Under the pieces are notes generated by a model, which saw nothing but the letters and a program-made list of their open reading frames with translations, was not told the origin of the DNA and did not search any database. DNA of 32,473 bases from assembly GCA_043812495.1 (NCBI GenBank), contig JBDRMG010000015.1, forward strand, positions 1 to 32,473, in the 5' to 3' direction. Position numbers and translations under genes: made by a program. Of this stretch, positions 21 to 32,343 are shown piece after piece (the stretch's first letter is position 1; the number at the start of each line of letters is the position of its first letter). This stretch comes from Candidatus Omnitrophota bacterium. Its GTDB lineage: Bacteria > Omnitrophota > Gorgyraeia > Zapsychrales > JBDRMG01.

Positions 21-39
21 CCGCAAAACAAATGGTAAA

Positions 40-146
40 TTAAAATTTTAATTTAACGCCCCCCCCCCCCCCCCCACTTTTCACAAAAAAGTGGTGGGGG
101 GGTCAATGAGCCCGCCACTGAATCAATGGCGGGCTCATTGAAAGGG
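40..146 (+). repeat. Reduced scaffold-A-type palindromic element: poly-C/CCAC..GTGG hairpin, GGTCAA, then the caatgagcccgcca..tggcgggctcattg hairpin
   Basis: 14-bp perfect stem at 104-117/127-140. Ends in ctcattgaaaggg, identical to 20964-20976. Core 112-132 is the exact reverse complement of 4469-4489. Confidence 0.75.
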
Positions 147-4347: not shown

Positions 4348-4465
4348 AGGTCTTAGGAGGGCAAAACTTACGGAGTGCAATGCCCGCCAAATTTCATCGA
4401 AATTTGGCGAGGTCTCGCAAAACCAAAGATTTTAGCGGAACGTAAGTTTACGCCCGACTTAGCCC
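4348..4465 (+). repeat. Scaffold-B structured element, copy 1
   Basis: Shares aggtcttaggagg..aaacttacg, ccgcca.atttc..gaaat.tggcgag.tctcgc and gcggaacgtaagttt..ccgacttag with 32136-32291. Confidence 0.85.
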
Positions 4466-4500
4466 AGCCCGCCATTGATTCAGTGGCGGGCTCATTGAGG
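4466..4500. repeat. CCGCCA..TGGCGG hairpin cassette abutting the ilvD RBS
   Basis: agcccgccattgattcagtggcgggctcattga; its loop is inverted relative to the copy at 109-141. Confidence 0.85.
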
Positions 4501-7126: not shown

Positions 7127-8085
7127 AAGCCATTAGTGTTTCTGAATTCGGCGATACCGGTGTCCTGCGGCTCCAGGATGTGCCGGATCTCAAACCCGTA
7201 GCTAATGAAATACTGGTTGACATCAAAGCCATCGGGGTTAATCCCGTCGACACCTATATTCGCGCCGGTACTTATCCGGTTCGCCCGACACTGCCTTATA
7301 CGCCGGGTATGGACGCAGCCGGCCTCGTGGCCGCTGTTGGCGAAGAAATTAAAGAGTTCAATGCCGGTGACCATGTCTATGTCGCAGGATCCATCACAGG
7401 AACGTATGCGCAGCAGGCGATTTGCAGCCCTTCTCAAGTGCATCCTTTACCGGACAATATTTCCTTTAAGCAGGGAGCGGCCATCGGCGTACCCTACGTT
7501 GCGGCCTATCGCGCGTTATTTACCAAGGCCAAGAGTGTTTCCAAGGAAACAGTTTTGGTTCATGGGGCCAGCGGCGGTGTCGGAACAGCCAGCGTTCAAT
7601 TAGCCAGAACACTGGGAATGAAAATACTTGCAACCGCTGGAACAGAAAAAGGCCGTCAGCTTGTTCTGGAGCAAGGCGCCGATTTTGCCATCGATCATCA
7701 TGCAGAAAACTATTTGGATGAAATCATGAAGATCACAGAAGGTCAAGGCGTCAACGTGATCCTCGAAATGTTATCGAACGTGAATTTAGGAAATGATTTG
7801 AAAATGATAGCCAAAAAAGGACGCATTGTCGTGATCGGCTGCCGCGGAGAAGTCACCATTAATCCCCGTGACGCCATGAGCAAGGACGCGACCATCTTAG
7901 GGATGACGGTCATGAATGCCACAAAAGAAGAGAAGGCCAAGATCCACGAAGCGCTTGGCATAGGCTTTGAAAAAGGAAAACTTTACCCCGTTATCGGAAA
8001 GGAATTTTCTCTTAAAGAGGCAGGTTTGGCGCATAAAGCGATTCTAGAACCCGGCGCCCACGGAAAAATTATTCTCATCCCTTAA
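7123..8085 (+). CDS. NADPH:quinone reductase (zeta-crystallin/MDR family)
   Basis: GVNPVDTYIR.G, PYTPG.D.AG, VHGASGGVG, GKIIL. Confidence 0.93.
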   Translation: MKAISVSEFGDTGVLRLQDVPDLKPVANEILVDIKAIGVNPVDTYIRAGTYPVRPTLPYTPGMDAAGLVAAVGEEIKEFNAGDHVYVAGSITGTYAQQAICSPSQVHPLPDNISFKQGAAIGVPYVAAYRALFTKAKSVSKETVLVHGASGGVGTASVQLARTLGMKILATAGTEKGRQLVLEQGADFAIDHHAENYLDEIMKITEGQGVNVILEMLSNVNLGNDLKMIAKKGRIVVIGCRGEVTINPRDAMSKDATILGMTVMNATKEEKAKIHEALGIGFEKGKLYPVIGKEFSLKEAGLAHKAILEPGAHGKIILIP

Positions 8086-8132
8086 GGAAGAGAAAAATAA
8101 TTTGAACGCAGATTTGCGCAAATATCCGCTAA

Positions 8133-8371
8133 GGATATCAGAAGATCGGGTGATCAGGGACTGGGTTATTAGGAGATAAGGAGATCGGGGACACATTCAT
8201 TTATTGACTTTCTCTTTATTAAAGGAACGGTGGAAGTCAATATTAGGTCTTCTTTCTCGTATAGAGAGAATATTATTGACTGTTCCATTAATAAGGAAAA
8301 GACCAATAAAAGTCCCCAATATCCAAATATCCAAATCTCCTAGTTCCGGATTCCCAAATTACCAAATCACC
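8133..8371. repeat. ~240-nt imperfect inverted repeat: mirrored degenerate 8-mer arrays enclosing a 130-nt GGGGAC..GTCCCC fold-back
   Basis: Left GGNNATNN-type units, right NNATNNCC-type units. Inner pairs: ggggac/gtcccc, tttattg/caataaa, ttattaa/ttaataa, ggaac/gttcc, agtcaata/tattgact, ttctttct/agagagaa. Confidence 0.8.
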
Positions 8372-8377
8372 TGAATT

Positions 8378-9298
8378 ATGGAATACATTAAAATACCGAA
8401 AACAGATTTGAATGTTTCCGCCATCACCCTGGGCACCTGGGTCTTTGGAGGAGAGTCATGGGGCGGCGCCAAGGACGAAGAATCGATTCAAGCGGTTCAT
8501 CAGGCGATCGAATGCGGTATCAATACGATTGATACGGCGCCTATTTACGGCGACGGACATTCCGAGGAAATTGTCGGCAAGGCCATCAAGAATAGGCGAG
8601 ATCAAGTTATTCTGGCGACCAAATGCGGCTTGATCAAGAAAGGAAAACAGGTCCTTATTGATTTAAGTCCGGCCTCAGTCCAAAAAGAAATAGATGACTC
8701 TTTAAGAAGGCTGAATGTCGATCAAATTGATTTATATCAATGCCATTGGCCGGATAAAAACACTCCTATTCAAGAAACCATGGAGACGCTGCTTGCGTTA
8801 AAGGACAAGAAGAAGATACGTTATATCGGTGTATCCAATTTTGATTTGAATCTTTTGAAAGAGTCAAGAAAAAACGCGGATGTCGTGACCCAGCAAGTTC
8901 AGTATTCCATGCTTGAGAGATCCATCGAAAAGGACATCCTACCGTATTGCCAAAAACAGGAAATTGGTATTCTGACGTACGGCGTCTTGGCCGGAGGCAT
9001 CCTTTCGGGAAAATATGCACAAGAAAAGAATTTTCAAGGAAGCGATGCCAGAAGCTTCCTTTATCCTTATTATCGTGGCGAAAAGTTTATCCAAACAAAG
9101 GCATGCGTTGACGCCATCAGGAAAATAGGAAAACCTCCTTATGAGACGGCCATCAATTGGGTGCGTCAGCAACCGGGTGTGACAAGCGTCATCGTTGGAT
9201 GCCGGAATGCCGAGCAGGTTAGGATGAACGCGCAAGCGGCCCAGTGGACCCTCAGCGAAGATCAAATACAGCTATTGTCGCAATTTAAGTTCTCATGA
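8378..9298 (+). CDS. Aldo/keto reductase
   Basis: LGTW, DTAPIYG, LATKCG, IDLYQCHWPD, IGVSNF. Confidence 0.95.
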   Translation: MEYIKIPKTDLNVSAITLGTWVFGGESWGGAKDEESIQAVHQAIECGINTIDTAPIYGDGHSEEIVGKAIKNRRDQVILATKCGLIKKGKQVLIDLSPASVQKEIDDSLRRLNVDQIDLYQCHWPDKNTPIQETMETLLALKDKKKIRYIGVSNFDLNLLKESRKNADVVTQQVQYSMLERSIEKDILPYCQKQEIGILTYGVLAGGILSGKYAQEKNFQGSDARSFLYPYYRGEKFIQTKACVDAIRKIGKPPYETAINWVRQQPGVTSVIVGCRNAEQVRMNAQAAQWTLSEDQIQLLSQFKFS

Positions 9299-12965: not shown

Positions 12966-14322
12966 TTGAATATCAGCAGCTTCATAGCGCAATTTAGCTC
13001 ATGGGTCTGGGGCCCGCCGATAATGATCCTTTTGGTGGGAACCGGATTATTCTTAAGCCTATTGCTTAAAGGGGTCCAAATCAGAGGTTTCCGGCATGCG
13101 ATCGGTATTTTAAGCGGCAAGTACGACAATGCCGAAGATCCTGGAGAGATTTCTCATTTTCGCGCTTTAGCTACGGCGCTTTCTGCCACCATTGGTACAG
13201 GAAATATCGTCGGGGTGGCTGCGGCGATTCTTATCGGCGGGCCGGGCGCTGTCTTCTGGATGTGGGTCACGGCCGTGGTCGGTATGGCCACAAAGTTCAC
13301 AAGCTGTACGCTGGCCGTCCATTTTCGCCGGATTGATGAAAAAGGAGAGGCTCATGGCGGTCCTATGCATTTTATCGAGAAGGGAATGGGACCGAAATTC
13401 AAATGGCTGGCTATTTTATTTGCCCTTTTCACAATGGTTGCCAGCTTAGGAATCGGCAACATGTTTCAGATCAATAATATGGTATCGTCTATTAACGGAT
13501 TGATTTTGGGAGAGGGAGCGAAGATTTCATTCTCTTTAAGCATGACGGTGGGTGTCCTGACGGCTGTTTTAGTGGCGAGTGTCATTATCGGTGGAATTAA
13601 AAGGATCGCGCATTTGGCCGGACTCCTCGTCCCTTTTATGTGTATTTTTTATGTTCTCTCGGGGCTTCTTATTTTACTCAAGAATTATCATCTCATCGGA
13701 CATGGATTCAATCTTATTTTTATGCAAGCATTTCATGCGCCTGAGTCTGTGGCCGGAGGCCTTGTCGGCGGTGTTATCCGTTCAGGTGTCGCGAGAGGAC
13801 TATTTTCAAATGAAGCCGGATTGGGAAGTGCGCCGATGGCCCATGGCGCGGGCCCGCACGAAGGAACCTGTTCGGGAAGGTCTTGTGGCCATGCTCGGAC
13901 CTTTTATCGATACCATCGTTGTCTGCAGCATCACAGCTCTTGTGATTGTCTGCATGGGAACTTATGAAACAGTCACGATCAAAGGACAATTAACATCCGC
14001 TGCTTTTGAGGCCGGATTACCGGGGTCACGGTGGGTTGTCTCGGTCGGCATCAGCCTATTCGCCTTCTCAACGCTGATTGCCTGGTCTTATTACGGAGAC
14101 CGGGCGGTTGATTATCTTTTTGGGGCAAAGGCTGTTTTACCTTACCGAATCATTTATACGGGCTTTGTCGTGATAGGAGCGATTAGACCCTTGGATGATG
14201 TGATCAATTTCTCCGACGCCCTTAACGGCCTCATGGCCATTCCGAATCTTACAGCTCTTCTTGTTCTCTCGCCACTTGTGGTTAAGTTAACAAAAGATTA
14301 TAGGAAAAAATATAGAACATAA
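12966..14322 (+). pseudogene. Alanine/glycine:cation symporter (AGCS) with a +1 frameshift at 13850-13852 (pseudogene or sequence error)
   Basis: Frame 1 runs ALSATIGTGNI..GGPGA.FWMW..RGLFSNEAGLGSAPMAH. The other frame continues ARTKEPVREGLVAMLGPFIDTIVVC..FAFSTLIAWSYYG..GLMAIPNL. Removing one G restores HGAARTKEP. Confidence 0.85.
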
Positions 14323-20831: not shown

Positions 20832-20976
20832 GAAATATTATAATTTAATTTGTTTAATCCCCTCGTCCGCCATAGATTATATCAACGGACTCGGGGTCAG
20901 TTCGACCTTATGACTTATGTCGCTTACTGACTGCCGCCAGGCGAAGGCTCCATAAGTCATGGTCTCATTGAAAGGG
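20832..20976 (+). repeat. Scaffold-A modular leader element upstream of the CheY-like gene
   Basis: Three blocks match the reverse complement of 30825-30963 (26/29, 26/28 and 17/19 by manual alignment), separated by non-matching cassettes. Confidence 0.85.
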
Positions 20977-20983
20977 TTGGCCA

Positions 20984-21367
20984 TTGAAAATTCTCGTGAT
21001 TGATGATTCTGATTTAGAACGCGAACTTCTCATTGAAGTTCTCAAAGGCGCAGGCGTCAAAGACGAATTTTTAGAAGCCAGAAGCGGAGAAGAGGCGATT
21101 CAGGTCTTGGGGACACGCTACAAAGAAATCGGCCTTATTCTTCTGGACTGGCAGATGCCTGAAATGTCCGGCATGGAATTCATGGAAGGCGTGGTGAAGG
21201 TTGATAAAGTGGCGAATATTCCGATTGTGATGGTCACGGCCTCGGGTTCCGAAGAAAATAGAAAGAAAGCAAAAAATATCAATCCCAAGCTTGCCGGATA
21301 CGTGGTAAAGCCTTATACGCCAAATTCCATATTGGAAATCATAAAATCATATGTTAAATGTGAGTAG
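20984..21367 (+). CDS. Single-domain CheY-like response regulator
   Basis: IDDS, LLDWQMPEMSG, MVTA, VKPYT; TTG start. Confidence 0.9.
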   Translation: MKILVIDDSDLERELLIEVLKGAGVKDEFLEARSGEEAIQVLGTRYKEIGLILLDWQMPEMSGMEFMEGVVKVDKVANIPIVMVTASGSEENRKKAKNINPKLAGYVVKPYTPNSILEIIKSYVKCE

Positions 21368-21385: not shown

Positions 21386-21964
21386 ATGTTTGGAAAAAAA
21401 AGTAATCCGGAATTAAATAAATTCGCAGAGTATTTGACCAAAGGCATCAAGAATCTTTTTGGGGAACGCGGAGAAATCAAATTTTCAAAAGATCCCGAAA
21501 TTGTCAAGAAAGATATTATTGAGTATCAGGGGCGTATGCGCACGGACGGCATGGAAAAGTTCAACAGTCCCACGTATGTTTCTTTCCTCAATTACTTCGC
21601 CAACAAAGCTGATATGGAAAAGAAAAAGGCCCTGGGAGCCCTTGTGCTTTATGTGGAACAAAATTTTATGGCTCCCTTAATGAAAAAGCTGAAGTATCCA
21701 GCCGTCAATGACGAAGATGAAGAGGCGCTCAAAGACAGCTGCGGGACCCTTTGCAACTTGATCGGCGGTCGTTTCAAATCAGAAATTTCTTGTCAGGGCT
21801 ATGCTGAGCTGGAGATGTCGCATTTTTATACGTATCGCAACAGCGCTTCCGATGGCGTGGCTTTTTGTTTTAGTGAGTATGAAAAATATGAAATATCTTT
21901 TACCATTGATAATGAGAAACGCGTCGTCGTTGAAATGACCATGGGCATCGTCCCAAGGCGGTAA
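21386..21964 (+). CDS. CheX-like protein (divergent)
   Basis: DSCGTLCNLIGGRFK resembles the CheX DAxGExxNxIxG helix; lies directly after the CheY-like gene. Confidence 0.6.
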   Translation: MFGKKSNPELNKFAEYLTKGIKNLFGERGEIKFSKDPEIVKKDIIEYQGRMRTDGMEKFNSPTYVSFLNYFANKADMEKKKALGALVLYVEQNFMAPLMKKLKYPAVNDEDEEALKDSCGTLCNLIGGRFKSEISCQGYAELEMSHFYTYRNSASDGVAFCFSEYEKYEISFTIDNEKRVVVEMTMGIVPRR

Positions 21965-22064
21965 GTAAGTAAGTAAGAATAGTCATGTTCTTTGTTGATT
22001 TAAGATCAATTTTATTATATGATGAAAACAATAATGTTCAGAACCGGAAGAGGAGTCAGCCCGG

Positions 22065-30774: not shown

Positions 30775-30824
30775 ATTACTCTTATAACAAAAAGGCGAGT
30801 AAACTTCAATAGATAACATCTCCA

Positions 30825-30963
30825 GGAGGCCATGACTTCTGGAGTCCACTATTGATTCAGTGGCGGACGACATAAGTCATAAGGCCGAATTGACCTCGCC
30901 CACCAAAATTGTTTAACAATTTTGGTGAGGCGGTGGATTAAGCAAATACAATTATAATATTTC
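30825..30963 (-). repeat. Scaffold-A modular leader element upstream of the pntA operon
   Basis: Same three conserved blocks as 20832-20976; cassettes are caccaaaattgt..acaattttggtg and tccgccactgaatcaatagtgga. Confidence 0.85.
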
Positions 30964-32135: not shown

Positions 32136-32291
32136 AGGTCTTAGGAGGCCCAAACTTACGAATAGTTAAAGAAAGTCCGCCAGATTTCCTTTCGGAAATC
32201 TGGCGAGATCTCGCTCGCCTCGCTGAACTTCGGCGAAGCGGGCCGAAATCTTCGATTTCGGCGGAACGTAAGTTTGAGGCCGACTTAGACC
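32136..32291 (+). repeat. Scaffold-B structured element, copy 2, with an extra inserted hairpin
   Basis: Matches 4348-4465 with compensatory changes; extra hairpin at about 32213-32243. Confidence 0.85.
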
Positions 32292-32343
32292 CCCACACCA
32301 ATTTGACTGCATGGGAATATTTTGAATTAATGGCAGGACTTTG

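Follow-up and report, generated by a model that had tools for sequence, protein, structure and literature searches.

Hairpin insertion elements with exchangeable slots, probably derived from a GIY-YIG nuclease cassette, at gene junctions of an Omnitrophota genome

Introduction

Correia elements of Neisseria are promoter-bearing MITEs, that is, short non-autonomous inserts with a −10-like hexamer at one end. Another kind of repeat in Neisseria and other organisms, the NTS (SRM) or dRS3 hairpin, is paired with SsnA, a GIY-YIG nuclease of the cd10448 group that acts on single-stranded DNA (ssDNA). According to the main text of its description, SsnA binds the hairpin on one strand, tolerates changes of the loop, and makes its cut in the flank, a few bases from the hairpin, and an IS-like origin was suggested for the system (PMC11893778). 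REPINs and REP-BIMEs, as far as two published accounts describe them, are extragenic, high-copy repeats with lineage-specific expansion, in which palindromic units form inverted doublets around a variable hairpin spacer (PMC3116915; PMC3733652). The second account makes no mention of GIY-YIG genes.

The stretch of DNA analyzed here (the window, 32,473 nt) is contig C15 of a 1.94-Mb, 66-contig Omnitrophota genome (G000). A preliminary description had singled out two similar intergenic sequences in it (copies A and B) and interpreted them as a mobile promoter/leader element whose hairpin cassettes are exchanged at fixed positions. Here we report that both sequences lack a gene and belong to a small hairpin-forming insertion element with more than 100 intergenic copies in the genome, which probably derives from a cassette with a tiny GIY-YIG nuclease gene. 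This element is thus a real, nuclease-associated hairpin repeat; the exchange of slots is supported, and a role as promoter is unlikely. The preliminary description was right about mobility and exchangeable slots but not about the promoter/leader nature, and the link to a GIY-YIG cassette was not part of it.

The element works like the REPIN/BIME and Ssn/NTS systems and fails membership in both. Shared with the latter, as its main text presents it, are a small single-domain GIY-YIG gene with oriented hairpin repeats on both sides (here at loci L024, L057–L060, and L063), the occurrence of gene-less repeats in hundreds of copies, and a variable hairpin loop. In contrast to that account, the repeats described here are two-tiered (arms plus outer units), 100–200 nt long, nested, and situated 5′ of ribosome-binding sites. 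The SRM pattern fits none of the 116 catalogued units and neither window copy, and its seven genome-wide matches equal the seven in the reversed genome. Furthermore, the L024 protein falls outside the 29-row clade (support 100/100) to which the proteins with SRM-like flanks belong in a nuclease tree that comprises 81 of 112 loci, 31 having been dropped by the ORF parser; SsnA is not in this tree, so that the SRM-like flanks stand as proxy for cd10448, and most other forks are unresolved. With REPINs and REP-BIMEs, as portrayed in the two accounts, the element has in common its extragenic location, high copy number, lineage-specific expansion, compensatory changes, tandem mosaics, and use as an IS-insertion target; the inverted doublet around a hairpin spacer is found in the symmetric form, whereas the block-1 copies that dominate G000 are asymmetric. 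It differs in that the gene carried is a GIY-YIG nuclease and no unit-flanked RAYT was found here, and in its ends (TYAAT/ATTRA with a GA/GA loop instead of a GTAG tag); CGTC is confined, by eye, to the foot of one apical hairpin type. Correia elements resemble it in being short, in lying near gene starts, and in having a −10-like hexamer at one end, but the block-1 form has no true terminal inverted repeats, its internal modules exchange, no target duplication was shown, and no matching DDE transposase is among the genes met here. Searches of the open-access literature brought up no description of this family; related motifs may be included in the supplementary data of PMC11893778.

Results and Discussion

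Anatomy of the window copies

The copies present in the window are listed in Table 1. On recount, the three blocks shared by copies A and B (alignments starting at 20832 and 30963, 20895 and 30895, and 20948 and 30844) retained the identities first reported for them (26/29, 26/28, and 17/19), and both intervening slots indeed hold unrelated hairpins. Blocks 2 and 3 pair as described, with a stem that covaries between the copies (GACC/GGTC versus GGCC/GGCC). The extent of the hairpins had been underestimated, however, as the slot-1 hairpin is wider in both copies and the block-2/3 hairpin closes further out, by TYAAT/ATTRA. In folding, each copy forms a slot-1 hairpin followed by the long block-2/3 hairpin. 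The right unit of copy A has a TC/TC internal loop, which corresponds to GA/GA on the minus strand. Compared to the symmetric element described below, block 1 of copy A occupies the place of the left hairpin unit, and its slot-1 hairpin sits where the collapsed inverted arms of the GIY-YIG cassette would be.

Copy A was thought to head an operon, but it lies 11 nt past the stop codon of a hybrid histidine kinase gene, with the cheY-like start 12 nt away on its downstream side. Copy B is located in the divergent pntA/msrA gap, 46 nt ahead of the pntA ATG. The reduced version recognized earlier ahead of the ORF at 153 is present (copy C); in its slot-1 arm, a 17-C homopolymer (59–75) exceeds its G partner and might be a slippage or assembly artefact. 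Copy D is flanked by phosphoglycerate mutase-like and dihydroxy-acid dehydratase-like ORFs, named by inspecting their translations.

Table 1. Coordinates of the element copies in the window and of adjoining features.
Feature	Position	Strand	Remarks
Copy A, block 1	20832..20858	+	AT-rich left module with TATAAT; private to G000 among the genomes scanned
Copy A, slot 1	20859..20896	+	GC-footed hairpin
Copy A, right hairpin unit (blocks 2 and 3)	20897..20971	+	Closing stem TYAAT/ATTRA, covarying outer stem
Copy A, slot 2	20922..20948	+	Exchangeable apical hairpin
Copy A, host flank	20972..20986	+	AAGG, Shine-Dalgarno-like; TTG start of CheY-like gene
Copy B, block 1	30937..30963	−	
Copy B, slot-1 hairpin	30894..30936	−	CACCAAAATTGT type
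Copy B, right hairpin unit	30821..30893	−	Degenerate end
Copy B, apical slot	30868-30844	−	Common CCGCCA hairpin
pntA ATG beyond copy B	30774		
Copy C, overall	34..141	+	Ahead of ORF at 153
Copy C, block 1	34-58		Degenerate
Copy C, slot-1 arm hairpin	59-102		
Copy C, right unit	103-141		Minimal
Copy D, overall	4352..4498	+	
Copy D, left unit	4352-4462		With nested hairpins
Copy D, right end	4463-4498		Fused hairpin/right end
Copy E	32140..32335	+	Left hairpin unit and one cassette arm, truncated

Copy number, covariation, and folding

A PWM search of the whole genome found block 1 at 110 sites of at least 18 bits, compared to none in the reversed genome. The block-2/3 hairpin, searched genome-wide with the pattern TYAAT-TC, stem, apical hairpin, stem, TC-ATTRA, is represented by at least 116 units and was likewise not found in the reversed-genome control; this count is a minimum, as even copies A and B did not pass the filters. 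Block 1 lies upstream of 82 of the 116 units. The closing pair, which the pattern leaves unconstrained, covaries among these units (75 C-G, 36 T-A, 4 T-G, and 1 T-T). Among 49 distinct units of other genomes, Watson-Crick pairing holds for outer pair 2 in 45 and for outer pair 3 in 41 cases (shuffle means 28 and 14.5), counts that are uncorrected for relatedness among the units. TC/TC occupies 102 of 107 2 × 2 internal loops and thus reads GA/GA on the opposite strand. In DNA, tandem GA pairs are stable when they stand in a pyrimidine-GA-purine context. The reverse strand is the more stable one in 93 of 111 copies folded as DNA and in 100 of 111 folded as RNA.

Strong covariation is also what a structured cis-regulatory RNA family, such as riboswitch-like or mRNA-stabilizing leaders, would display. 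The placement 5′ of start codons would suit such a family as well, and so would the sense strands of the two window copies, which fold better than shuffled sequences (z = −2.0 and −5.8). Their antisense strands, however, fold better still (z = −4.2 and −8.1), antisense copies are common, the adjoining genes are unrelated to each other, and some members carry a nuclease gene. Rfam gave no relevant match for the window and eight loci, in agreement with the initial remark that no named family was recognized. The sites are moreover unconserved in the sister genus (see below), which largely refutes the RNA reading, and we consider it most improbable.

An initial excess of A·C over G·T mismatches at 1 × 1 loops (32 versus 8) was gone after deduplication (12 versus 8, p = 0.5). 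No replication-strand bias was detected, with 29 of 51 units on the leading strand (p = 0.40) and 63 of the 116 unclear because the skew was too weak.

The GIY-YIG cassette

In its full, symmetric form the element comprises, in this order, a left hairpin unit (consensus YAART-GA...GA-AYTTR), a GC-rich arm, an 84-aa GIY-YIG gene, the inverted arm, and a right hairpin unit (TYAAT-TC...TC-ATTRA). G000 contains one intact cassette (L024, contig C5), which is located inside a slot-1 hairpin and has dapF-like and dapA-like neighbors (named by inspection). The encoded protein possesses the residues Y5, Y16, G18, R26, H30, and E62 and matches UPF0213 and SLX1 proteins best among PDB entries. Of 78 related loci, the five that represent the closest homologues of Omnitrophota type (L057–L060 and L063; 61–74% identity) have both units and the same arms; four of them are titled Omnitrophota and L060 “bacterium”. 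Homologues of the Patescibacteria type (L064–L070, L076, and L127) have inverted arms and no units, and some of their arm types reappear in G000 as empty slot-1 hairpins. At the 24 GIY-YIG loci of five unit-rich genomes, both units were seen by eye six times.

Loss of the GIY-YIG gene leaves the arms behind as slot-1 hairpin. The arm types CCCCCACACCAATT, CCCGCACCTTTT, CCCCCACCACTTT, and CCCAGCACT recur without a gene in slot 1 of G000, and at one orthologous site shared with the sister genus (G001) the latter keeps a decayed GIY-YIG gene between the arms where G000 has a 107-nt hairpin. Both units at this site also have different apical hairpins in the two genomes, so that both gene loss and slot change have taken place in situ. 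Most slot-1 types of G000 have no match among gene-bearing cassettes, and the longer slot-1 hairpin loops align only weakly to cassette interiors (best z 1.1–5.2).

In the dominant G000 subfamily, block 1 has replaced the left unit. On the left side of the right unit, other genomes often have another hairpin unit (29 of 52, using a loose pattern). Block 1 might be read as a left unit that has shrunk (TAAG-GA-AATA...TATT-TG-CTTA), but by eye this agrees with the AAG-flanked subset only. At G000:C3:10025-10128, block 1 flanks a slot-1 hairpin on both sides in inverted orientation, giving a MITE-like structure without right unit.

Fifteen further GIY-YIG matches exist in G000 besides L024. Many of the 16 (loci L021 and L025–L031) adjoin a tRNA or tmRNA-like gene and often have, on the other side, an incomplete tRNA copy broken by a small palindrome, a pattern that also occurs in other genomes of the order. 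A GIY-YIG ORF that looks Ssn-like by eye (L022, G000:C64:52802-53020, minus strand; WKR...LIE...W.DL tail) is flanked by its own inverted GATCC/TCATCCTG hairpins and is absent from the nuclease tree. Loci L062, L067, and L068 are arm-flanked GIY-YIG cassettes whose flanks resemble rRNA genes by eye and which would thus be insertions into rRNA genes.

Exchange of slot contents

Grouped into classes by hand-written regular expressions, the 116 units display 81 slot combinations. Slot-1 type and apical hairpin show no linkage (NMI 0.279 versus 0.266 after shuffling, p = 0.31, n = 68 classified units), slot-1 type and outer stem a weak one (p = 0.0005, n = 95), and outer stem and apical type a strong one (n = 73). 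The CCGCCA apical hairpin occurs at 121 loci genome-wide, 76 of them within family loci, and is used in both slots. Since the contents of slot 1 and slot 2 assort independently, the swappable-slot idea is supported, most clearly for slot 1 against slot 2. Together with the copy number, the empty orthologous sites presented below, and the differing apical hairpins at the shared site, this upholds the original view of a mobile element with exchangeable hairpin slots.

Distribution and insertion sites

The right-unit pattern occurs in 56 of 301 genomes of the phylum, with one control match. Block 1, on the other hand, gave 61 matches in G000 in the phylum scan and none in the 300 other genomes, nor was it found in the 1.87 Mb of the about 2.1-Mb G001 genome that were compared. 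In a separate lineage-specific expansion of right units (L160–L170, in G018), the slot-1 hairpin is minimal and the left module is a distinct one.

The comparison with G001 shows that the elements were inserted into gene junctions that had been tight before. A census of 140 element sites with two flanking genes yielded 82 distinct gene pairs that are adjacent in G001, a few sites being false PWM matches or affected by the simple gene caller. A check for empty orthologous sites, proposed at the outset, found 81 of the 82 pairs without a unit. The median gap at these pairs is 30 nt in G001 compared to 193 nt in G000, and 50 of the 82 gaps in G001 are at most 50 nt long. The junction orthologous to that of copy A measures 14 nt in G001, and its AAGG-to-start spacing of 8 nt is the same as in G000; copy A therefore entered 5′ of a native, operon-internal ribosome-binding site. 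No flank duplication is evident in the flank logos, with a TAA or TTA repeat in single cases.

BLASTN of copy A against 40 relatives returned one weak match, which is due to the restriction of block 1 to G000 and to the variability of the unit. The plasmid collection contained no match to the element, and all 24 pattern matches in viral contigs failed the stem-pairing test (0/24) and are attributed to chance. No RNA run containing the genome was listed. From three DNA runs (shares 0.05–0.10), only short pieces of low depth were obtained, none of them a contig that spans an empty site; two joints at the elements may be other copies of the repeat.

Orientation and the promoter question

Of the 116 units, 73 are in sense and 32 in antisense orientation between co-directional genes, 4 are in divergent and 2 in convergent gaps, and 5 are at contig ends. 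The sense placement noted for the first two copies is a real bias (51:23 for block-1 copies, p = 0.0015), although about 30% of all copies are antisense. It would be expected if block-1 copies had spread as portable promoter/leader, with the TATAAT driving transcription that runs across the hairpins as far as the ribosome-binding site behind them and so cancels polarity. This view gains from the conserved −10-like hexamer (T82 A91 T91 A60 A72 T91, in %), from start codons 11–20 nt past the element in 46 of 77 sense copies, from Shine-Dalgarno-like words in the flanks of 45 of 77 sense but only 7 of 39 other copies, and from the prevalence of block-1 copies (82/116) over the symmetric form in G000. 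However, a search for σ70-type pairs at a 16–18 nt spacing found the −10-like hexamer and no −35, the −35 position is not conserved, and promoter scans placed no σ70-type site on the block-1 TATAAT of copy A or B. Antisense copies, which make up 32 of the 105 between co-directional genes, do not differ from sense copies in their −10 score (p = 0.51). Divergent gaps are not enriched either, as they harbor only 4 of the 111 copies with two flanking genes (background for gaps of at least 100 nt, 9%). Furthermore, the orthologous junctions are mostly tight and already contain the Shine-Dalgarno sequence, and block 1 is private to G000 while the hairpin unit is widespread. Spread as a portable promoter/leader is therefore rather improbable in our view, and a dedicated promoter or RNA leader is unlikely to be what the element is, but it may have incidental promoter activity.

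A Shine-Dalgarno-like target preference, combined with tolerance at gene boundaries, explains the sense placement more simply. The putative preference is for a flank of T-R-A followed by AARGA, which would put most copies just 5′ of ribosome-binding sites and thereby cause a sense bias without any leader function. The AARGA consensus persists in the flanks of non-sense copies (A64 A66 A53 G58 A58, in %; n = 39), and it could partly be the element's own end.

Mobilization

Taken together, the element is likely to be a non-autonomous, REPIN/BIME-like hairpin insertion element that derives from the symmetric GIY-YIG cassette and is mobilized by the nuclease in trans. The units might be recognized as ssDNA hairpins, on the strand that presents the invariant TC/TC loop as GA/GA, and the GIY-YIG protein of the cassette would nick close to them. 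Host recombination or repair could then copy elements to new sites and, in existing copies, convert segments that lie between conserved blocks, which would produce the slot mosaics. The enzymatic steps are proposed in analogy to SsnA. To our knowledge, GIY-YIG nucleases form no covalent intermediate and cannot religate, which leaves the copying step unexplained.

Alternatively, the same element might be mobilized by a Y1 (HUH) transposase, an IS200 TnpA or RAYT-like enzyme cutting at TYAA, with the GIY-YIG cassette as a passenger that itself inserted between the units. G000 has seven Y1_Tnp matches, and three of three copies of an IS200-type left end directly follow TCAA or TTAA at the junction of slot 1 and right unit (TYAA/TTCG), so that a Y1 enzyme could be involved; one gene-less copy is located between TCAA and TTCGG without duplication. 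A passenger cassette would also fit the arm-only GIY-YIG cassettes and a doublet with empty slot 1 (L218, in G308), which lies between ribosomal protein genes (named by inspection) and differs from filled doublets by the hairpin and a repeated TTA. Yet empty-centre doublets are at chance level overall (8 genomes versus 6 control matches), and L218 alone folds as a unit. Among the seven Y1 matches none is flanked by the repeats, as RAYTs would be, save the IS200-type TnpA at the junction, whose gene contains a stop codon and is bounded by ends of its own; the other six have no units within 260 nt upstream and 150 nt downstream. The genes that are found between units encode GIY-YIG proteins, and we regard mobilization by a Y1 enzyme as unlikely. 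The three left ends of the IS200/IS605 type (G000:C64:87-625, minus strand; C8:76602, plus strand; C18:19034-19160, plus strand) belong to a TnpA gene with a stop, a fragment, and a gene-less miniature.

Mobilization by the GIY-YIG nuclease could be extended to a transposase-free class of mobile elements, a possibility that we put forward tentatively and with some doubt. An SLX1/UPF0213-like GIY-YIG protein outside the Ssn clade would read ssDNA hairpins marked by GA/GA and nick at a Shine-Dalgarno-like flank, and host repair would copy the elements to gene starts and shuffle their internal hairpins. By rewiring transcription within operons, the variant with the −10 box might have prevailed over the ancestral form in this lineage.

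The association described here carries the theme of nuclease plus hairpin repeat beyond Ssn (cd10448) and RAYT into a further GIY-YIG clade, and makes it testable how repeats spread when the partner gene encodes a nuclease and not a transposase. The many natural pairs of enzyme and hairpin are candidates for new site-specific ssDNA nucleases. For the Omnitrophota, it means that more than 100 operon junctions of a single 1.9-Mb genome were remodeled since the split from the sister genus. Because of their resemblance to promoters and structured leaders, these inserts will give misleading results in scans for promoters and RNA motifs.

Other features of the window

Other palindromes cluster at 2330–2470 (CCTGCCTTGCC...GGCAAGGCAGG, TCCGAC...GTCGGA, and CCCCGACACCAGTCCGC...GCGGACTGGTGTCGGGG), between an ACT-domain-like and a cation-efflux-like ORF. 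The intergenic region 8085–8378 contains short pyrimidine/purine-skewed repeats, for example CCAAAT units, which surround a set of ATTGAC...GTCAAT palindromes also present on other contigs. A tandem GTAA run with stops in all frames lies past the CheX-like ORF (21960–21980). The alanine/glycine:cation symporter-like gene at 12966–14322 appears to be split into two overlapping frames (12966–13967 and 13579–14322), which suggests a frameshift.
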